Origin: Clostridia bacterium
Lineage (GTDB): Bacteria > Bacillota > Clostridia > UMGS1883
Direction of reading: 5' to 3'
NCBI GenBank assembly: GCA_045546275.1
Contig: JAZQCM010000042.1
Location: 3,864 to 67,863 of the forward strand
DNA length: 64,000 bases
This document shows, one piece after another, positions 41,795 through 53,338 of the stretch (positions are counted from its first letter, which is position 1; every line of letters begins with the position of its first letter). The position numbers and the translations under genes are program-made. The notes below the pieces were generated by a model, which was not told the DNA's origin, did no database searches, and worked only from the letters and a program-made list of their open reading frames with translations.

Positions 41795-44700
41795 ATGAAA
41801 AAAGTTTTTAGTTTAATTATTGCGGTAATTATGGCACTTTCTATAGTTCCTGCAATGGCAGAGGAAGCTTCTTCAAGTGTTTTGTTAAATGGTGAAAAAG
41901 CTCCCTTTGAAATTTTAAACGGCTATGTGCCCGTACGAGCTTTTGCCGACAGCTTAGGCTTAACTGTAAAGTGGGACAACGACAACCGCTGTGTAGTGGC
42001 GAATGACGGCGGAACTGAGGTTATTGTACCCATAGGCAAAAAGTGGGTGCAGAGAGCAGGCTTAAAGCAGTCAATTGACAAGGAAAGCATTATTATTAAT
42101 GATTTGTCCTACCTGCCTCTTGACGCTTTAAAGGGCTTTAATGCAACCTATGGTGGCGATGAAAGCCTGGTTACAATTGAAAAGTCCGTTTTTGAAGGCA
42201 AGTATGTAAAGCTTATTCAAAACGGCAAGGCGCTTATGCCCAATGAAAGCGGCAGTATTGTTATGGAAATTGTTTCTGAAAACGACGCACAGGAATGGAA
42301 GTTTACTTCCCGCGGCAGTGGTGTGTACCGTTTTGAAAACAAGAGCACAAAAAAGGCAATTGACGTACCCAGCGACAGTAAAGATGCAGGCAAGGCGCTT
42401 ATTCAGTATTCCTTCACAGGTGGCGGAAACCAGAACTATGTGCCCGTACGAAACAGTGATGGTACATATTTAATCCAGTGCTACAACTCAAAGCTTTTTA
42501 TGACAGTTGGCGAGGATAACACAGTCACCCAGGAAGAATTAACAGGTAACGATAACCAGAAGTTTATTTTAGAGGTTGCAGGCGTAGGCGAAGTAACGAG
42601 TGATACTATTGCTCCCGATACCGAAAAAGACCCCTATGACGGTAAGTTTGTAACGGTTGACGGCGAAATTTACCGTGTTATCTTAGTGGGCGATGAATAT
42701 GAAATAACAAACAAAAAAACAGGCGAAAAAGCCGAAATTGATTTAGAAAATGCATCTGTTGCAACACTTAACGATGTAGATTACGGCGAAAGCAAGTTTG
42801 TAGGCGGTAAGTTTATCACTCTTACAATGAACGGCAAAAACTTGATTGTTGACGAAGATACAAACGAAATTGCTCTTTCCGATAAAACAGATGAAGTTGC
42901 ACAGTGGGAAGCTGTTGCAGTAGGCAGTACAGCATTCACGCTTGTCAACAAAAAAACAGGTAAGGCAATTGACGTGCCCAACGAAAGCAAGGAAGCGGGA
43001 ATTAAGCTTTCCCAGTACACATCAAACAAAAAGAACCACCAGATTTACTCCTTTGAAAAAGCAGATGGTGGATATAAGCTTAAAAACAAAAACTCCGAAA
43101 TGTTCCTTACAATTAAGGATGGTATTGCATACCAGGAAGAGGCTGGTGACAAAAACCAGGTATTCACCTATGAAATCGTAGGCGAAAGCAATGCGAAAAT
43201 GGTTGCAATCACAGCAACACCCTTTGTATTAAAGGGCGATGAAAAAGTAACTAACGTAAAACTCCAGTGGAACGAGGTTATCGGTGCAACAAAATACGAC
43301 ATTTATAAATCCGTTGATGATGGTGAATATGTTCTTTTCGACGCATTAACAGGCTTTACTGTTGACGATTACGATCTGGAAATGGGCAAGAGCTACACAT
43401 ACCGTGTGTATGCATCGGATAATAATGGGCTTATAGGCTATGCGGAAACAGAGCAATTCACACCCTACGAAATGCCTCTTGACATGAAGAGCACAACAAA
43501 CCTTGAACCTTCCGGTATGAGCACACCCGGTGGCGGAATGAAAGATGCCAGCGGCACATACTACCGCTTCAGCCAGACTGGAAGAAAAGACGGCGGTAAA
43601 GGCTTTGGTCAGGTAACCATGAGCACTTCAACTGATGGCGTTACATACACAGACCCTGTTATCATCATGACAGTTGACGACATTTTAGCCCATGAAACCT
43701 GTAAGGACATAAAGGACATCCGCTTTGAAAGCGTAAACTTCAAGTACAACCCCAAGGCTAATAACTTTGGCTTTATAGCTCATGCAGAGCCCGGTAGCGG
43801 TGGCTATGACTTTGCAAGAATTTCTATTGCAACCTACACTCCCGGGGACGAAAAAATGGTGTTCCACGGCTGTGTTCGCCCCGGTGGCGATGATATTCGT
43901 GACCTTAACACCTTTATTGACGATGACGGCACAGGCTACATTATGGGCGCAACTCATGGCAATGCAGACCTTGGAATTTATCGCTTGAAGGAAGACTGGT
44001 CAGGTGTTGAAAAACGAATTGCTCTTTTAAATCCCGGAAAATGGAGAGAGCTTCCCAACATTTTAAAGGTTGACAATTACTATTACCTCTTCACATCAGG
44101 CTGTGCAGGCTGGTATCCCACACCCGGTATGTACAACTCCGCTACTAACATGGAAGGCCCCTGGAGCGATTTGAGAAACGTTGGTAACCTTACAACCTTC
44201 TCCTCTCAGTCAGGCTACGGCTTCTACCTTAAAAAGGACAGCGAAAACTACATGATGAACTCCTACCGCTGGATGGGCAACTGGAAGGATGCAACACTCA
44301 AAACAACACAGTCGCTCCGTTTCCCCATTAAGGTGAGCGAAGGTTATGCATTCTACGACTATTTTGAAGAACTGCTTTACAACTGGGAGGAAGATGTTGT
44401 AGTGCCCGTACAGCGTGGCAGAATACTTTCCCAGAACCGTCCCACAAGCTACGGAAAGAATGCAAACGACGGTAATTACAAGTCCCAGTGGAGTGTTGAC
44501 ACAACCTGGCCCTACACTTGGGAGGTTGACTTAGGACAAACATACAACGTAAACCAGGTGCAGATTTCATGGCTTATCCGCATAGGCAGTGAGCCTTACT
44601 ACAACTACATTATTGAAGGCAGTGAAGACGGCGTTAACTACACAAAGCTGGTGGATAAGAGTAGTGGCTACACTGATTACGGCTTTACTGTAGACAACTG

Positions 44701-44809
44701 CATGGGCAAGGCAAGATATGTACGAGTAACTGTAAATAACGCAAAGCCCAGAAGCGGTGAAAATAATTATCCCTCAACCTTCTACGAAATTAAGGTGATG
44801 GGCAGATAA
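41795..44809 (+). CDS. Secreted multi-domain carbohydrate-active protein. Domain order: signal peptide, Cu-amine-oxidase-like stalk, two ricin-B (CBM13-like) lectin domains, FN3, a GH43-like 5-bladed beta-propeller, and an F5/8 type C (CBM32-like) domain.
   Basis: VLLNGEKAPFEILNGYVPVRAFADSLGLTV (stalk domain). QxW beta-trefoil motifs (AQEWKF, NQKFILE, AQWEAVA, NQVFTYEI). FN3 (VKLQWNEVIGATKYDIYKS...YTYRVYA). GH43-like FIDDDGTGYIM and EGPW. C-terminal discoidin (NYKSQWSVDTTWPYTWEVDLGQTYNVNQVQISW...ARYVRVTV). Confidence 0.7.
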   Translation: MKKVFSLIIAVIMALSIVPAMAEEASSSVLLNGEKAPFEILNGYVPVRAFADSLGLTVKWDNDNRCVVANDGGTEVIVPIGKKWVQRAGLKQSIDKESIIINDLSYLPLDALKGFNATYGGDESLVTIEKSVFEGKYVKLIQNGKALMPNESGSIVMEIVSENDAQEWKFTSRGSGVYRFENKSTKKAIDVPSDSKDAGKALIQYSFTGGGNQNYVPVRNSDGTYLIQCYNSKLFMTVGEDNTVTQEELTGNDNQKFILEVAGVGEVTSDTIAPDTEKDPYDGKFVTVDGEIYRVILVGDEYEITNKKTGEKAEIDLENASVATLNDVDYGESKFVGGKFITLTMNGKNLIVDEDTNEIALSDKTDEVAQWEAVAVGSTAFTLVNKKTGKAIDVPNESKEAGIKLSQYTSNKKNHQIYSFEKADGGYKLKNKNSEMFLTIKDGIAYQEEAGDKNQVFTYEIVGESNAKMVAITATPFVLKGDEKVTNVKLQWNEVIGATKYDIYKSVDDGEYVLFDALTGFTVDDYDLEMGKSYTYRVYASDNNGLIGYAETEQFTPYEMPLDMKSTTNLEPSGMSTPGGGMKDASGTYYRFSQTGRKDGGKGFGQVTMSTSTDGVTYTDPVIIMTVDDILAHETCKDIKDIRFESVNFKYNPKANNFGFIAHAEPGSGGYDFARISIATYTPGDEKMVFHGCVRPGGDDIRDLNTFIDDDGTGYIMGATHGNADLGIYRLKEDWSGVEKRIALLNPGKWRELPNILKVDNYYYLFTSGCAGWYPTPGMYNSATNMEGPWSDLRNVGNLTTFSSQSGYGFYLKKDSENYMMNSYRWMGNWKDATLKTTQSLRFPIKVSEGYAFYDYFEELLYNWEEDVVVPVQRGRILSQNRPTSYGKNANDGNYKSQWSVDTTWPYTWEVDLGQTYNVNQVQISWLIRIGSEPYYNYIIEGSEDGVNYTKLVDKSSGYTDYGFTVDNCMGKARYVRVTVNNAKPRSGENNYPSTFYEIKVMGR

Positions 44810-44814
44810 AGCAA

Positions 44815-44848
44815 ACAAAAATGAGCGACTGTTGTCGCTCATTTTTTT
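44815..44848. terminator. Bidirectional terminator.
   Basis: aaaatgagcgactgttgtcgctcattttttt. Confidence 0.75.
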
Positions 44849-45632
44849 ATCTTGGAATTTCAATTATAAGTGGTGCATCAATATATTCGTTAAATTCTTC
44901 TTCCGGGAAGAAAAGATGAACTGTGCCGTTTTGAATATAATATTCAAAATCCAATGCATCGTAATTATCTAACGAACGCTTGAACGCATAAAGGGTGTTG
45001 TATTCATCCTTTTTGTTTTCATCGGCATATTTTTCGTCAACGTATTCAATAATCTTATCCTTTATGTATTTACTTGTTTTTGCATATGTCATTGAAAAAA
45101 CATCAGTAAGAAGAAGCTGTTTGCCTGTGGAAAGGCTGAAATTAAAGACGGAAAAGCCTTCTTCGCCCAACGATGAGGTTTCAACCATTTTAATGCTTAA
45201 AATACTGCCCTCGTTTGTAAGAACTTCAGCTTTGCAATTGTATTTAATCTCATCTGTGTCATCGGAAGATACAAGCTTTGTTTTTGCAATGCAGTTTTTA
45301 AAATACTCTTCACAGCTTTTTTCAATGGCAGAGTTGATTATGTTAATATTTTCGGTAACAGTGTCAATAACGGGTAAATCATAGCTCATTAAAGATTCAA
45401 TTTCCCCAACCTGCTCTGTACGCTTTTCGGTTTTTGTTTTAATTTTTGCGCTTTCTACGTACTCAAAATTCATGTTGGTAAAAGAATGCACATTAATAAA
45501 GTTTTTATTTTCGGTTGCATCCTCTAAGCTTTGCTGATACTCGGTAATGTGGTTGCTTAAAAAAGAGGAGGTTGCAAAAAATGTGCCTGCAAAAATTATT
45601 AAAATGATAACAGGAAAAATAAATTTCTTCAT
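44847..45632 (-). CDS. DUF4163/DUF3298-domain protein (RsiV-like extracytoplasmic domains) with an N-terminal membrane anchor.
   Basis: MKKFIFPVIILIIFAGTFFA TM anchor. Domain-like pattern ...NFSLSTGKQLLLTDVF...VHLFFPEEEFNEYIDAPLIIEIP. Confidence 0.55.
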   Translation of the reverse strand: MKKFIFPVIILIIFAGTFFATSSFLSNHITEYQQSLEDATENKNFINVHSFTNMNFEYVESAKIKTKTEKRTEQVGEIESLMSYDLPVIDTVTENINIINSAIEKSCEEYFKNCIAKTKLVSSDDTDEIKYNCKAEVLTNEGSILSIKMVETSSLGEEGFSVFNFSLSTGKQLLLTDVFSMTYAKTSKYIKDKIIEYVDEKYADENKKDEYNTLYAFKRSLDNYDALDFEYYIQNGTVHLFFPEEEFNEYIDAPLIIEIPR

Positions 45633-47616: not shown

Positions 47617-47625
47617 TAAAAAGAG

Positions 47626-47660
47626 TAGTTTTTAACTGCTCTTTTTTTGTGTGAGAGGCA
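47626..47660 (+). terminator. Rho-independent terminator.
   Basis: aaaagagtagtttttaactgctcttttttt. Confidence 0.7.
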
Positions 47661-47691
47661 TCAAAAATAGTAGAAAAACGTTGAAAATACT

Positions 47692-47720
47692 ATGTATGTA
47701 TGATAAAATAACTATATATT
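47692..47720 (+). promoter_or_regulatory. Sigma-A promoter heading the kinase-ferredoxin-hydS-PP2C-hydrogenase operon.
   Basis: TTGAAA-17 nt-TGaTAAAAT. No further promoter-sized gaps occur until the terminator at 53303. Confidence 0.5.
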
Positions 47721-47742
47721 GATTTTTAAAGGAGAGTCGTCA

Positions 47743-48489
47743 ATGAAACTGGAAAAAGTGATTGCGGTAAGAAATAATAAAACAATTTACCAAGACGGAA
47801 ATTTGAAGATAAAAGTGTTTGACAGCAGCTACAACAAGACGGTGGTTCTGAACGAAGCTCTTAACCAGGCAAGAATTGAAGAAACAGGTCTTAACATTCC
47901 CAAAATTTTTTCTGTTGAACAGATTGAGGGTAAGTGGGCTATTGTTTCGGAATATATTGCAGGTAAGACTCTTGCACAATTGATTGATGAAAACCCTGAA
48001 AAAGAAGACGAATACCTTGAGCTTATGGTGAATTTGCATATTGAAGTTATTTCCAAGCCCTGCAGTATCATGAACCGACTTCATGACAAGCTGACAGAAA
48101 AAATTATGGAAAGTGACCTTGATGCAATTACACGCTACAATTTTTGCAGAAAAATTATTGAAATGCCTACTCGTACAAAAATATGTCACGGAGACTTTAC
48201 GCCTTCCAACATTACTGTGGCCGACGATGGAAAGGTGTATATTATCGACTGGTCCAATGCAGCCCAGGGCAACGCTTCGGCAGACGTTGTGAGAACCTGC
48301 TTGCTGTTAAGACTTTCCGGCAAAGAGGAAATGGCAAATAAATATTTTAATATGTACTGTGAAAAGAATGGTGCAGACAAAAATTATGCTAAGCAGTGGT
48401 TCCCGATTATTGCGGCGGCATTAAGCACCGATGCAAAGCAGGAAGATAAAGAAAAACTTTTGAACTGGATTAAAAATACCGATTTTTAA
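47743..48489 (+). CDS. APH/choline-kinase-fold phosphotransferase (PF01636-like).
   Basis: Brenner motif ICHGDFTPSNITV, followed by IIDWSNA. Start at MKLEKVIAV, with RBS aaaggagag upstream. Confidence 0.75.
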   Translation: MKLEKVIAVRNNKTIYQDGNLKIKVFDSSYNKTVVLNEALNQARIEETGLNIPKIFSVEQIEGKWAIVSEYIAGKTLAQLIDENPEKEDEYLELMVNLHIEVISKPCSIMNRLHDKLTEKIMESDLDAITRYNFCRKIIEMPTRTKICHGDFTPSNITVADDGKVYIIDWSNAAQGNASADVVRTCLLLRLSGKEEMANKYFNMYCEKNGADKNYAKQWFPIIAAALSTDAKQEDKEKLLNWIKNTDF

Positions 48490-48505: not shown

Positions 48506-48745
48506 ATGAAAATAACTGTGTGCATAGGAAGCTCGTGCCATGTTAAAGGCTCAAAGAGTGTGGTGGAAGAGCTGCAGAGACTCATTGGTGAAAATAATGT
48601 GGGCAATAAGGTTGAGCTTGGCGGAACATTTTGTTTGGGAAAGTGCCAGGACGGAGTTTGTGTTGAGGTTGAAAAAGAAATTTTTTCAGTTACTAAAGAA
48701 ACCGTAGAGGAATTTTTCCGAAAAGAGGTTTTGAATAAATTATGA
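48506..48745 (+). CDS. Thioredoxin-like [2Fe-2S] ferredoxin (paralog 1).
   Basis: VCIGSSCHVKGS...GGTFCLGKCQDG carries the four Cys pattern of Trx-like 2Fe ferredoxins (NuoE/HndA family). Confidence 0.7.
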   Translation: MKITVCIGSSCHVKGSKSVVEELQRLIGENNVGNKVELGGTFCLGKCQDGVCVEVEKEIFSVTKETVEEFFRKEVLNKL

Positions 48746-48987
48746 TTATTCAGATTTGCGTAGGAAGCTCTTGTCACCTCAAAGGGTCGTATGAGCTTGT
48801 TGAAAAGTTTAAAAACGCCATTGAAGCACATGACTTAGAAGCAGAAATCACCCTTGCAGGCAGTTTTTGCACAGGAAAATGCAACCGTGAAGGCGTGACG
48901 GTTTTGATTGATGATGAAATTTTTACAGGATTAACCCCTGATGGATTTAAGGAGTTTTTTAAAGAAAATGTATTAGACAAAATCTGA
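48742..48987 (+). CDS. Thioredoxin-like [2Fe-2S] ferredoxin (paralog 2).
   Basis: ICVGSSCHLKGS...AGSFCTGKCNREG. The start overlaps the stop of paralog 1 (ATGA). Confidence 0.7.
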   Translation: MIIQICVGSSCHLKGSYELVEKFKNAIEAHDLEAEITLAGSFCTGKCNREGVTVLIDDEIFTGLTPDGFKEFFKENVLDKI

Positions 48988-49004: not shown

Positions 49005-50681
49005 ATGCCAAAGTGCATGATATCCAAAAAAAGTGATTGTAAAAATTGCTATAAATGTATACGTAATTGCCCGATTAAAGCAATTCGTTTTTCGGGCAAC
49101 CAGGCACAGATAATCGGAAACGAGTGCATTCTTTGCGGTCGTTGCTACACAGTTTGCCCCCAGAATGCAAAAGAGGTTGTAAGTGAGGTTGAAAAGGCAA
49201 AGGTGCTTATTGCATCCGGCGATGAGGTTTATGTAAGCCTGGCGCCCTCTTTTATTACAAAGTTTGACAATGCGGGCATTGAGTCAATGGAAGAAGCCCT
49301 TAAAAAGCTTGGCTTTACAGGCTGTGAGGAAACTGCAATAGGTGCCACAATTGTAAAAAATGAATACGAAAAAATGCTTTCGACAGGCGATAGAAATATT
49401 GTTATATCCTCCTGTTGTCACAGCATAAATCTTCTTATACAGAAGTATTTTCCTAAGGCGCTTACATATCTTGCAGACGTGTTAAGCCCCATGCTGGCAC
49501 ACGGTGCCGATATTAAAAAACGCCACGAAAACGCAAAGGTTGTATTTGTTGGTCCTTGTATTGCAAAAAAGGATGAAGCTGAACATTACGAAGGCTTTGT
49601 AGATGCAGTGCTTACCTTTGAAGAATTGGAAAACTGGTTTAAAGAAGAAGGTATTGTGCCCGACAAGAATGTTATATCCTGTGAAAAATCAAGAGCAAGG
49701 TTTTTCCCTGTTACAGGCGGTATTCTTAAAACAATGGCGTGCAATGAAGAAAAGTACGAATACATTGCCCTTGACGGCATTGAAAACTGCATGGAAGTAC
49801 TCCGCGAAATTGAAGAAGGCAGAATAAATAACTGCTTTATTGAAATGTCGGCTTGTGTAGGTGGCTGTGTGAACGGTCCTGCTATGGGTAAAAAGGAGTA
49901 TTCGCCTGTTATCGATTTTATAGCGGTGAAAAATTTTGCAGGCGCAGAAGACTATGATGTTAATCAGCCTGACAGCTTCGATTTAAGAAAAATTTTCGAT
50001 TTTATAGAAAGAAGGTCACAAGAGCCTAATGATACTGAGGTTGAGGCTGTCCTTCGTCAAATGGGCAAGTTCAAGTTGGGCGATGAATTGAACTGCGGAC
50101 TTTGCGGCTACAACACCTGCCGTGACAAGGCAAAGGCTATTTGTCAGGGCAAGGCGGAAATAAGCATGTGCCTTCCGTTTTTGAAGGATAAAGCCGAAAG
50201 CTTTTCAGACACAATTGTTAAAAACACACCCAATGGTCTTATTGCACTTAATGAAAGCTTAGAGGTACAGCAAATAAACGAAGCTGCACAAAAAATGATG
50301 AATTTAAGATATGCATCGGATATTTTGGGTGAGCCTGTGGTGAGAATTCTTGACCCTAAGGACTTTGTTGATGTTTTAAATTCAGGCAGAGATATACGAA
50401 ACAAGAGAGTTTATCTTGCCGAGTACAAACGCTATGCTGACGAAACTATTGTGTATGACAGAGATTCAAGAATGTTAGTTGCAATACTTCGTGACGTTAC
50501 CGATGAAGAAACCGAAAGGGAAAAGAAAGAGTCTATCAGCCGACAGACCGTAGAGGTTGCAGATAAGGTTGTTGAAAAGCAGATGAGAATTGTTCAGGAA
50601 ATCGCATCGCTCCTTGGTGAAACAGCCGCCGAAACAAAAATTGCACTGTCAAAGTTAAAGGAGTCGATTGCTGATGAATGA
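49005..50681 (+). CDS. hydS: Putative sensory [FeFe]-hydrogenase (group C, HydS/HfsB-like). Domain order: a 2x[4Fe-4S] ferredoxin domain, the H-cluster domain, a Cys4 cluster and a PAS domain.
   Basis: CKNCYKCIRNCP and CILCGRCYTVCP. H-cluster motifs L1 SSCCHS (canonical TSCCP), L2 GPCIAKKDE, L3 EMSACVGGCVNGP. C-terminal CGLCGYNTCRDKAKAICQGK...C. PAS-like C-terminus (NTPNGLIALNESLEVQQINEAAQKMMN). Confidence 0.85.
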   Translation: MPKCMISKKSDCKNCYKCIRNCPIKAIRFSGNQAQIIGNECILCGRCYTVCPQNAKEVVSEVEKAKVLIASGDEVYVSLAPSFITKFDNAGIESMEEALKKLGFTGCEETAIGATIVKNEYEKMLSTGDRNIVISSCCHSINLLIQKYFPKALTYLADVLSPMLAHGADIKKRHENAKVVFVGPCIAKKDEAEHYEGFVDAVLTFEELENWFKEEGIVPDKNVISCEKSRARFFPVTGGILKTMACNEEKYEYIALDGIENCMEVLREIEEGRINNCFIEMSACVGGCVNGPAMGKKEYSPVIDFIAVKNFAGAEDYDVNQPDSFDLRKIFDFIERRSQEPNDTEVEAVLRQMGKFKLGDELNCGLCGYNTCRDKAKAICQGKAEISMCLPFLKDKAESFSDTIVKNTPNGLIALNESLEVQQINEAAQKMMNLRYASDILGEPVVRILDPKDFVDVLNSGRDIRNKRVYLAEYKRYADETIVYDRDSRMLVAILRDVTDEETEREKKESISRQTVEVADKVVEKQMRIVQEIASLLGETAAETKIALSKLKESIADE

Positions 50682-51846
50682 TCTTAGTGCTGAAATCGGT
50701 TACAAAAGCATAAACCATTACGGTGAAGAGCTGTGCGGAGACCATGTGGACATAATTGAGCAGGACGAAAACTCCACAGTTATAGTTTTGGCTGACGGCT
50801 TGGGTAGTGGCGTTAAAGCCAGCATCCTTTCCACATTGACATCAAAAATAATCTCAACAATGATGGCTGCAGGATTGGGAATAGAAGAATGTGTTAAAAC
50901 CATTGCTGCAACCTTACCGGTGTGCTCAGTCCGCGGTGTGGCTTACTCAACCTTTACCATCATACATCTTATTGACAGGGAAACTGCCGACATTATACAG
51001 TACGACAATCCCCAGGTTATCATTCTTCGAAACGGCAAAAATTACGACTATCCCAAAACCGAAATGAATATTGACGGCAAAAAAATATTCCGTTCAAGCA
51101 TTAAGTTGTGTGAGGATGATTTGATTATTGCAATGAGCGACGGATGTCCTCATGCGGGCATAGGAATGGCGTACAATTTTGGTTGGAAAAGAGAAGAAAT
51201 CATCGATTTCATGGAAATGATGAGCACCTGCGGATATACTGCAAAAAATTTATCCACCATTCTGGTGGATGAGTGCAACAAGCTCTACAACAATAAGCCC
51301 GGTGATGATACCACTGCGTGTGTTGTGAGAATAAGACGCCGTGAGCCTATGAATTTGTTGTTTGGTCCGCCATATAACCGTGACGACTGCAACCGTATGA
51401 TGGCTTTGTTTTTTTCAAAGGAAGGCAAGCACATTGTATGCGGCGGTACAACCAGTTCAATTGTTGGCAAGTACCTGGGCAAGCCTGTTAGGGCAAGCTT
51501 GAATTTTGAAAATTCCGATGTTCCTCCGATTGCAGAAATTGAAGGTGTGGACCTTGTAACTGAAGGCGTTATAACCATTAACAAGGTTGTTGAATATGCG
51601 AAGGACTATATCGGAGAAAACCGATTGTATGAAAAATGGAACTTCAAGCGTGATGGTGCGGCGCTTATATCCAGGCTTCTTTTTGAAGAGGCAACGGATA
51701 TAAATTTCTACGTGGGCAGAGCAATCAATCCTGCACACCAGAACCCCGATTTGCCAATAAACTTCAACATTAAAATGAATCTGGTTGAAGAATTGAGCAG
51801 TTGCCTTAAACAAATGGGCAAAAGGATAAAAGTGAGTTATTTCTAA
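50668..51846 (+). CDS. SpoIIE/PP2C-family serine phosphatase with a C-terminal ~190-aa domain of unknown function.
   Basis: GEELCGDHVDIIEQDENSTVIVLADGLGSGVKASI...MSDGCPHAG (PPM metal-binding Asp/Gly motifs). It overlaps the hydS stop. The C-terminal half (aa ~210-392) was not assigned to any domain. Confidence 0.8.
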   Translation: MLMNDLSAEIGYKSINHYGEELCGDHVDIIEQDENSTVIVLADGLGSGVKASILSTLTSKIISTMMAAGLGIEECVKTIAATLPVCSVRGVAYSTFTIIHLIDRETADIIQYDNPQVIILRNGKNYDYPKTEMNIDGKKIFRSSIKLCEDDLIIAMSDGCPHAGIGMAYNFGWKREEIIDFMEMMSTCGYTAKNLSTILVDECNKLYNNKPGDDTTACVVRIRRREPMNLLFGPPYNRDDCNRMMALFFSKEGKHIVCGGTTSSIVGKYLGKPVRASLNFENSDVPPIAEIEGVDLVTEGVITINKVVEYAKDYIGENRLYEKWNFKRDGAALISRLLFEEATDINFYVGRAINPAHQNPDLPINFNIKMNLVEELSSCLKQMGKRIKVSYF

Positions 51847-51858
51847 GGAGTATAATAT

Positions 51859-53301
51859 ATGAGAAAATTTGATACAAAGGTACAGCATCTTAAATATGAG
51901 GTGTTAAGGGAGGTTGCCCGTCAGGCGTGGGACGACACGCTTTTGGAAAACTACCTTGAAATACCCAAAATTATTGTGCCCGGCGAAGAACCCACAATGC
52001 GTTGCTGTATTAATAAAGAAAGAGCAATATTGGCAGAAAGAGTTAAGATGGCAATGGGCGGAACACGTGAAAACCCCAACAATATTGAGGTTTTGCCAAT
52101 GGCGTGCGACAAATGCCCTGCATCAGGCTATGAGGTTATAGCAGACAGCTGTCGTAACTGTCTTGCTCATAGCTGCGAAGAATCCTGTAAATTCGGTGCA
52201 ATATATTTTGACCACGACCACCGTGCGCACATTGACAAGGAAAAGTGCAAAAACTGCGGTCAGTGCGCACAAAACTGCTCTTTCTCCGCTATTGTGAAAA
52301 GGGAACGCCCCTGCATGAAGGCGTGCAAGGTTAAGGCTATCAGTGCTGAGGGCGGTAAGAGTGCATCAATTGATAACAGTAAATGTATTCAGTGCGGTGC
52401 ATGTGTTTACAAGTGCCCCTTCGGTGCTATTACCGACAAGAGCTATATTTTGAATGTTATTGATATACTGAGAAAAGGCAAGGAGAAAAACTACAGGGTT
52501 TATGCTGTTGTTGCGCCTGCAATCTACAGCCAGTTTAAGTATGCAAAGCTTGGTCAGGTGGTGTCGGGGCTAAAGGAATTAGGCTTCCACACTGTGGTAG
52601 AAGCGGCATTGGGCGGTGATATGGTAGCTTTGAAGGAAAGTAAGGAGCTTAGTGAAAAAGGCTTTTTAACAACCTCCTGTTGCCCTGCATTTGTGGCGTA
52701 TATAAAAAGTCAGGTGCCCGACATGGTGGAATATGTTTCACATAACTATTCTCCCATGGTGGAAATGGCGAAGTTTATTAAAGAAACAGACAAGGATGCA
52801 AAGGTTGTGTTTATTGGTCCTTGTACTGCGAAAAAGGGCGAAGCAAAGCTCGAAAAAAGCCAGCCTCATATAGATGAGGTGCTCACCTTTGAAGAATTGC
52901 AGGCACTTTTCGATAGCCGTGACATTGAACTTGAAAAGCTTTCTGAGGATGTTTTGAACAACGCATCCTATTACGGCAGAATTTTTGCCCGTAGTGGTGG
53001 CGTGGCAGAAGCTGCTGCACAGGCTTTAAAAGAACAGGGCATTGAATTTGATGCAAAGCCTCTTGTTTGTAACGGTATTGAAGAATGTATGAAAGCACTA
53101 TTGGTTGCCTCCAAAAAGTTAAAGGCAGGACAAATGCCCGAATATAACTTTATCGAAGGTATGGCTTGCGTGGGTGGATGCATTAACGGTGCAGGCTGTC
53201 TTACACATAGCGAGATGAAAAACAAAATGGATGTTGATAAGTACGGCAAAGAAGCTATGGAAAAAACCATTAAGGATGCAGTTGACGCTGTAACAATGTA
53301 A
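51859..53301 (+). CDS. [FeFe]-hydrogenase catalytic subunit (group B/HfsD-like) with an N-terminal accessory domain and multiple [4Fe-4S] clusters.
   Basis: Four Cys clusters (CDKCPASGY...CRNCLAHSCEESC, CKNCGQCAQNC, CIQCGACVYKCP). H-cluster motifs TSCCPAF, GPCTAKKGE and EGMACVGGCINGAG. Confidence 0.85.
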   Translation: MRKFDTKVQHLKYEVLREVARQAWDDTLLENYLEIPKIIVPGEEPTMRCCINKERAILAERVKMAMGGTRENPNNIEVLPMACDKCPASGYEVIADSCRNCLAHSCEESCKFGAIYFDHDHRAHIDKEKCKNCGQCAQNCSFSAIVKRERPCMKACKVKAISAEGGKSASIDNSKCIQCGACVYKCPFGAITDKSYILNVIDILRKGKEKNYRVYAVVAPAIYSQFKYAKLGQVVSGLKELGFHTVVEAALGGDMVALKESKELSEKGFLTTSCCPAFVAYIKSQVPDMVEYVSHNYSPMVEMAKFIKETDKDAKVVFIGPCTAKKGEAKLEKSQPHIDEVLTFEELQALFDSRDIELEKLSEDVLNNASYYGRIFARSGGVAEAAAQALKEQGIEFDAKPLVCNGIEECMKALLVASKKLKAGQMPEYNFIEGMACVGGCINGAGCLTHSEMKNKMDVDKYGKEAMEKTIKDAVDAVTM

Positions 53302-53302
53302 A

Positions 53303-53338
53303 AAAGTGGTGTTGCTATTGCAACACCACTTTTTGTTT
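53303..53338. terminator. Bidirectional terminator ending the hydrogenase operon.
   Basis: aaaaagtggtgttgctattgcaacaccactttttg. Confidence 0.75.

Follow-up and report, generated by a model that had tools for sequence, protein, structure and literature searches.

A conserved APH/choline-kinase-fold gene at the head of a HydS-PP2C-hydrogenase operon, with adhE as the main genomic partner of its family

The DNA analysed here, a stretch of 64,000 nucleotides referred to as the window, carries on its forward strand an open reading frame at positions 47743..48489 (referred to as KIN) that encodes a 248-aa phosphotransferase of the APH/choline-kinase fold, orthologous to Rumal_3402 of R. albus 7. 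An AGGAG ribosome-binding site (47730..47734, + strand) could be read from the sequence 8 nt 5′ of the ATG, and its GGAG is invariant in the alignment with relatives. Comparison with three relatives gave dN/dS values of 0.06-0.16, and KIN is a real gene under constraint. Further upstream lies a sigma-70-type promoter (47681..47709, +) composed of a -35 TTGAAA, a 17-nt spacer and an extended -10 TGaTAAAAT (10/12 match, with the TG). Its -35 and -10 are kept in four relatives, including one (L152) with a different upstream gene. Within KIN a weak 9/12 promoter match occurs at 48113-48141, and the gap that separates the gene from the first ferredoxin ATG at 48506 is exactly the 16 nt given in the initial annotation, again in agreement with it in holding no promoter-like site.

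Five further genes follow on the same strand. Fd1 (48506..48745) encodes a thioredoxin-like [2Fe-2S] ferredoxin equivalent to hfsA (PF01257, 3.4e-8) that is 65% identical to the R. albus copy, and Fd2 (48742..48987; PF01257, 1.1e-8) is its tandem paralogue, 42% identical to Fd1 and overlapping it by 4 nt. The next gene (49005..50681) encodes a putative sensory [FeFe] hydrogenase of the HydS/HfsB type (Fe_hyd_lg_C 3.1e-52, FeS 1.9e-9, PAS 1.8e-4), with two [4Fe-4S] domains, an H-domain, a C-terminal FeS domain and a PAS domain. It is followed by a SpoIIE-family PP2C phosphatase (HfsC; 50674..51846; PF07228, 4.2e-13), which is 79% identical to Rumal_3406, and by a group B monomeric [FeFe] hydrogenase (HydA2/HfsD, HydB in the locus orders below; 51859..53301), which scored 542 bits against a cut-off of 450 for TIGR04105. 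HydS is 65% identical to Rumal_3405 and HydA2 66% identical to Rumal_3407, which the HydDB classes in the supplement of Greening et al. 2019 (PMC6776011) place in FeFe group C3 and group B, respectively.

The intergenic gaps along KIN-Fd1-Fd2-HydS-PP2C-HydA2 amount to 16, -4, 17, -8, and 12 nt. An intrinsic terminator with a 15-bp stem and a T-run closes the row of genes at 53301..53334 (+; dG -23.3 kcal/mol, z -7.4). At its other end, a terminator-like hairpin with a U-run (47617..47650, +; dG -14.6 kcal/mol, z -6.4, with 0/200 shuffles as good) lies 3′ of a PP-loop (TtcA-like) gene and insulates the operon from it. The spacing of the junctions, the flanking hairpins, and the conserved promoter together establish that KIN opens an operon of six genes made up of KIN, two [2Fe-2S] ferredoxins, HydS, PP2C, and the group B hydrogenase, so that its initial placement at the head of a HydS-PP2C operon holds.

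Several features of these genes deserve description in their own right. Many related loci carry a single ferredoxin, the hfsA equivalent, where the window has the tandem pair at 48506-48987. The PP2C start was set by the ORF lister at a TTG at 50668, and its 390-aa homologues begin at the ATG at 50674; the overlap with the end of HydS is accordingly 14 or 8 nt, which suggests translational coupling of the two genes. The C-terminal domain of PP2C (about 165 aa, residues ~225-390, window 51340-51846) has no Pfam match, carries invariant CGGTTS and EEATDINF motifs and is 82-100% identical among the best 120 homologues. In the AF2 model of PP2C the pLDDT falls below 50 at residues 232-297, with an overall mean of 69.9; the domain could be a module for HydS docking or substrate recognition. 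Relative to the closest genome relative (L001), identities were 75% for KIN, 70% for Fd1, 83% for HydS, 85% for Fd2, 90% for HydB, and 93% for PP2C, which ranks KIN near the bottom of the operon in conservation, yet with a dN/dS no higher than the values given above. Elsewhere in the window, a 1004-aa secreted protein (41795-44809, +) combines a copper-amine-oxidase-N-like domain with three ricin-type lectin repeats, GH43, and F5/8 type C, and is probably a plant-polysaccharide-degrading enzyme. A protein of 261 aa (44847-45632, -), anchored in the membrane at its N terminus, has no Pfam match. A search of positions 1-64000 against Rfam gave no family at gathering score.

The active site of KIN is intact. 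The ATP-anchoring β3 lysine K24 (codon 47812..47814, +) is conserved in 99% of 108 homologues and its salt-bridge partner E38 (codon 47854-47856, +) in 100%. The catalytic loop, or Brenner motif, HGDFTPSN (residues 149-156; 48187..48210, +) contains H149 (100%), D151 (99%), and N156 (97%), and IIDWSNA (residues 167-173; 48241-48261, +) begins an APH-type (I-D-x...D) metal-binding segment, IID169W...GNASAD181 (48241..48285, +), in which D169 (99%), W170 (100%), G176 (100%), and D181 (99%) stand out and which aligns with the IDWEY segment of LicA. Thus each of K24, E38, H149, G150, D151, N156, D169, and D181 is at least 97% conserved among the 108 sequences, and from these residues KIN is predicted to be competent for catalysis as a stand-alone phosphotransferase with the APH/choline-kinase fold.

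Profile searches point the same way. KIN matched the Pfam APH family (PF01636) with 44.9 bits against a cut-off of 23.2 (E 1.6e-11), matched RIO1 in part and stayed below threshold for Pkinase (PF00069; 18.7 against 31.7). No NCBIfam model reached its cut-off, the top ones being the uncharacterised TIGR02172 paralogue family, Bud32, thiamine kinase, and APH(3′). Taken together, the APH match, the sub-threshold Pkinase score, and the lack of any NCBIfam model at cut-off show that the initial reading of HGDFTPSN and IIDWSNA as signs of an APH/choline-kinase fold, and not of a Hanks kinase, was correct. The fold of KIN is bilobal, its C-terminal substrate subdomain is helical, and an activation loop is lacking. 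The combination of an above-threshold Pkinase profile, a glycine-rich loop, and a DFG...APE activation segment that marks Hanks-type kinases is not found in it, nor are the full-length model match and closest structural match that would mark a RIO or Bud32 protein, and it reaches none of the curated models of aminoglycoside or macrolide resistance families. KIN is therefore a member of the APH/ChoK fold and neither a Hanks kinase, a RIO/Bud32 orthologue, nor a resistance enzyme.

The nearest relatives of KIN by structure and sequence are all small-molecule kinases. Its structural neighbours include LxmK, TvaE, YihE, and Bud32, and with these among them the APH fold stays compatible with peptide or protein substrates. 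Known enzymes of the PF01636 fold, such as the APH(3′) kinases, type II homoserine kinase, and LicA, share only 11-15% identity with KIN, which has no glycine-rich loop and lies far below every curated family cut-off for enzymes of this fold; its context consists of redox and signalling genes, whereas theirs is antibiotic, amino-acid, or lipid metabolism. The KIN family itself is large, with more than 8000 close homologues, and 466 clusters at 50% identity (E<=1e-30). The best 150 representatives are all either fragments or proteins of about 245-255 aa that stand alone, and no domain fusion joining KIN to a partner was found among them.

A tblastn search of PLSDB identified a full-length KIN homologue, 48.8% identical, on the plasmid pRUMAL01 of R. 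albus 7, where the order is rex-adhE-KIN-Fd-Fd-HydS-PP2C-HydA2 (Rumal_3400-3407) on one strand. These genes are annotated as Rex, AdhE, a phosphotransferase (WP_013483408.1), two (2Fe-2S) ferredoxins, an [Fe-Fe] hydrogenase domain protein, a SpoIIE phosphatase, and a 4Fe-4S/hydrogenase protein. Downstream of KIN the gene order is identical in the window and in R. albus, and the products are 65-79% identical. Rumal_3402 occupies the same slot as KIN, directly before Fd-Fd-HydS-SpoIIE-group B hydrogenase, with a gap of 17 nt as against 16 nt. In R. albus, however, rex and adhE precede it and the cluster is carried on a 420-kb plasmid, whereas KIN in the window stands behind the gene for a PP-loop ATPase under its own conserved promoter, and neither rex nor adhE is present anywhere in the 64 kb. 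The H2-responsive rex-adhE-KIN-hfs cluster of R. albus 7 (L063; NC_014824.1, 138999-147916) thus resides not on the chromosome but on a plasmid typed as mobilizable (MOBP). The Rex operator TTGTKAANNNNTTMACAA was sought in the whole window with up to 2 mismatches; 5 matches were found against 3.5 expected, none of them near the KIN promoter.

The expression of the R. albus cluster has been described. When R. albus shares its culture with a consumer of H2, expression of each of the eight genes drops 90-130-fold (Greening et al. 2019, Table S7, PMC6776011), and Rumal_3402, listed as an "aminoglycoside phosphotransferase", is down 113.8-fold (Greening et al. 2019, PMC6776011). In the passage of Eminoglu et al. 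2017 (PMC5707799) that relays Zheng et al. 2014, a neighbouring protein kinase of the Ser/Thr type is mentioned at the R. albus sensory-hydrogenase locus. We infer that this kinase is Rumal_3402, because it is the sole kinase-like gene in the eight-gene cluster. The initial annotation had seen in KIN a candidate opposing kinase and an unusual partner for the phosphatase. The first half of that idea is plausible, with KIN co-conserved with PP2C; the second half falls, since R. albus, whose locus is the prototype for sensory hydrogenases, has an orthologue in the same position for which such a role has already been proposed.

A comparable arrangement exists in Clostridium (Acetivibrio) thermocellum, for which a published table lists Cthe_0422 as Rex, Cthe_0424 as an aminoglycoside phosphotransferase, Cthe_0425 as hypothetical, Cthe_0426 as an Fe-S cluster protein, Cthe_0427 as SpoIIE, and Cthe_0428-0430 as hydrogenase subunits; adhE is Cthe_0423, and Cthe_0422-0430 are co-regulated. 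Cthe_0424 (Clo1313_1797) lies between adhE and the hfs-type genes Cthe_0425-0427 and is, judging by annotation and position, a probable homologue of KIN. The hydrogenase downstream is of the NuoE/F-type multimeric kind, in contrast to the group B monomer of the window. In Thermoanaerobacterium saccharolyticum and T. thermosaccharolyticum, hfsA-hfsB-hfsC-hfsD corresponds to Fd-HydS-PP2C-HydB of the window, but a kinase gene is missing from the published hfsABCD operon, and adhE there has as its neighbour Tsac_0415, an unrelated, divergent gene of unknown function. Deletion of hfsA or hfsB leads to higher adhE transcript, NADH-ADH activity, and ethanol yield (PMC5707799), and the rise in transcript accounts for only part of the change in ADH activity. 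The window is an additional case of the rex-adhE-kinase-hfs cluster of R. albus and C. thermocellum. Its arrangement is the known one of R. albus minus rex-adhE, a variant common in metagenomes, and is in itself ordinary.

Two sets of loci were compared to place KIN in its wider genomic context. The PP2C-centred sample comprised 80 metagenome loci with PP2C 74-82% identical, 52 of which had enough upstream sequence, and the KIN-centred sample comprised 62 GTDB species loci, 61 of them evaluable for adhE. Both are biased, one being seeded by exact 8-mers and the other consisting of the best 80 matches, and the proportions that follow are descriptive and not population estimates. KIN lies directly 5′ of Fd-HydS-PP2C in 48/52 evaluable PP2C-centred loci, and the six-gene operon of the window is kept in relatives with KIN identities of 77% and 68%, so the co-occurrence check proposed with the initial annotation came out in favour of an APH-fold gene beside hydS/PP2C. 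Among the 48 loci with KIN, at least 28 have adhE upstream, 7 have rex directly upstream and no adhE, 6 have neither and resemble the window, and the rest are cut by contig ends. One abundant human-gut species shows the order LysR-adhE-KIN-Fd-HydS-PP2C, and the adhE-less variant of the window recurs in L001, L150, L152, and 13 metagenome loci.

When the comparison is centred on KIN, its commonest neighbour and main partner is adhE, directly upstream. An adhE gene of ~870 aa (Aldedh plus Fe-ADH) lies immediately 5′ of KIN on the same strand in 54/61 KIN-centred loci, and adhE is upstream of KIN in about 84 of 103 evaluable loci (108 KIN sequences overall). The KIN start follows the adhE stop after a median of 14 nt, and at 15 junctions the two genes overlap. 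Besides adhE, no conserved transporter, small-molecule pathway gene, or any other conserved neighbour was found next to KIN in the KIN-centred loci. HydS or PP2C within 8 kb is missing at most adhE-KIN loci that have enough downstream sequence (41 loci), and few KIN-centred loci have hydrogenase genes at all. These are the window-like L001; L002, with KIN-HydS-PP2C; L037 and L040 (181-8744), with a permuted rex-Fd-HydS-PP2C-HydB-adhE-KIN on one strand, in which adhE, not HydS, remains next to KIN; and L050 (8001-11633), an Erysipelotrichaceae MAG in which KIN is followed by a group B [FeFe] hydrogenase and a 482-aa ORF without Pfam match, with no adhE, HydS, or PP2C nearby.

The KINs that are linked to HydS and lack adhE, that of the window among them, cluster in a neighbour-joining tree, as do, each on their own, the R. 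albus-type and the adhE-only KINs. The KIN of L002 is nested among the adhE-only KINs, and the modules have therefore been rearranged more than once. Pairs of adhE and KIN also occur outside Clostridia, in MAGs labelled Spirochaetota (L015, L017-L019) and in Collinsella aerofaciens (L064, Actinomycetota), where AdhE is 68-75% identical to that of R. albus; this looks like horizontal transfer of both genes as a unit. Collinsella gave no HydS or PP2C match in PLSDB, a collection in which its genome is possibly incomplete.

The expectation that sensory-hydrogenase loci usually carry Hanks kinases was not borne out, as none was seen at any of about 150 loci, nor was any kinase other than KIN. With L133 and L144 corrected by hand, four of the 52 evaluable PP2C-centred loci (L073, L102, L142, and L111) have no KIN, and Monoglobus has a HydS-PP2C operon without an adjacent KIN. 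No substitute kinase was found at these four loci or in Monoglobus, the upstream genes being unrelated metabolic genes or LysR/HTH regulators. The record of A. noterae contains HydS-like and PP2C-like genes and no KIN match.

KIN belongs to a conserved reductant-disposal module, in which it is joined by rex, adhE, one or more ferredoxins of the hfsA type, HydS, a PP2C of the SpoIIE type, and a hydrogenase that depends on ferredoxin, and on this basis a mechanism can be proposed. Through its C-terminal FeS/PAS region, HydS would signal H2 or redox state to PP2C, its translationally coupled neighbour; KIN would phosphorylate a Ser/Thr of the target, from which PP2C would take the phosphate off, and the phosphorylation state would divide electrons between H2, by way of the group B hydrogenase, and ethanol, by way of AdhE. 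The likeliest target would be AdhE, with Rex, the hydrogenase, or HydS itself as alternatives. Consistent with such a switch, the conserved partners of KIN are two alternative electron sinks, Rex as a redox repressor, and a putative sensor of H2 with a protein phosphatase coupled to it, and the permuted clusters (L037/L040, L002, and L050) keep the same gene set. We infer from this a protein substrate, an opposition of KIN to PP2C, and the identity of the target, and tentatively favour, at a little under an even chance, the reading of KIN as a Ser/Thr kinase with a regulatory task, set against the PP2C that HydS controls, which would determine the H2/ethanol balance through AdhE or some other protein of the cluster. 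The narrower version, in which KIN would be a dedicated kinase of AdhE, or of AdhE and the ferredoxin-dependent hydrogenase, and would form with the HydS-gated PP2C a post-translational switch that responds to H2 at the branch point of acetyl-CoA and reductant, is speculative and rather unlikely as it stands.

The lack of any domain fusion between KIN and a partner, the absence of adhE and rex from the window, and the A. noterae record speak against the switch. Further against it weigh the small-molecule kinases that are the nearest relatives of KIN, the many adhE-KIN pairs without a nearby PP2C, and the HydS-PP2C genes without an adjacent KIN in Monoglobus, in Thermoanaerobacterium hfsABCD, and at the four metagenome loci. 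These same observations make a serious rival of the view that KIN phosphorylates a small molecule, its substrate or product being connected with AdhE or redox metabolism (an alcohol, amino-alcohol, cofactor, or vitamin precursor, for example), and that the link of KIN to HydS-PP2C reflects shared regulation and not an opposing pair. To our knowledge, nearly all characterised APH/ChoK-fold enzymes are small-molecule kinases; on the other hand, we know of no AdhE substrate or cofactor that is a kinase substrate. Such a role also sits poorly with the lack of a conserved transporter or further pathway enzyme beside KIN, with scores far below the cut-offs of all named small-molecule kinase families, and with the protein phosphatase gene that neighbours KIN in 48/52 loci, and we regard it as less likely than the switch, though well worth keeping in view.

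Two further readings carry much less weight. KIN might be mainly an ATPase or an assembly or maintenance factor for AdhE, concerned with spirosome formation or upkeep of the metal site. Bud32 and RIO proteins are ATPases more than true kinases, KIN has partial sequence similarity to RIO1 and Bud32, and the adhE-KIN junction is tight and often overlapping, all of which would suit such a factor, but we consider it improbable. The database label "aminoglycoside phosphotransferase" is what speaks for an aminoglycoside or macrolide resistance enzyme placed here by chance. KIN, however, scores 31.7 bits against a cut-off of 205 for the APH(3′) NCBIfam model (APH_3p) and 17.7 against 525 for APH(3′)-VI, about 17 bits against 550-612 for MphC/MphL and about 17 against 550-680 for the Mph and APH(9) models. 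The synteny with redox genes is moreover conserved across phyla, and regulation by H2 in R. albus is about 100-fold, which leaves this explanation with next to no credibility.

The favoured reading, a regulatory kinase set against the HydS-controlled phosphatase, has parallels in known systems. The PknB/PstP, PrkC/PrpC, and GHKL-SpoIIE/RsbU modules follow the same proposed logic, in that a kinase and a PP2C set the phosphorylation of a target according to a sensed signal, but KIN belongs neither to the Hanks nor to the GHKL kinases and, unlike the partner-switching modules, its operon encodes no STAS-domain substrate. A functional analogy only is offered by AceK and isocitrate dehydrogenase, where a branch point is governed through phosphorylation by a kinase-like enzyme encoded beside an enzyme of central metabolism; AceK acts as both kinase and phosphatase and is of a family other than that of KIN, and phosphorylation of AdhE by KIN is hypothetical.

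The searchable literature gave no main-text mention of Clo1313_1797 or Rumal_3402, no discussion of the function of KIN or of an adhE-kinase pairing beyond the R. albus cluster, no discussion of a kinase in the biochemical work on HydS, and nothing relevant on AdhE in phosphoproteomes. The sensory role of HydS-type hydrogenases was still termed putative in 2022, and the mechanism by which hfsB affects adhE and ethanol was still described as unknown in 2026 (PMC13277313). The new element is thus the coupling of adhE to a kinase gene, the window itself being structurally nothing new. If the narrower version of the proposed switch, with KIN as a dedicated kinase of AdhE or of AdhE and the hydrogenase, is real, it would amount to AceK-like control of fermentation by an APH-fold kinase and would explain why hfsB/hfsC mutations redirect flux to ethanol. 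As the sole kinase candidate at HydS loci, and with adhE as its strongest genomic partner, KIN provides a testable candidate for the link between hydrogen sensing and ethanol production that bears on the ecology of H2 and methane in the rumen and on the engineering of ethanol-producing strains.
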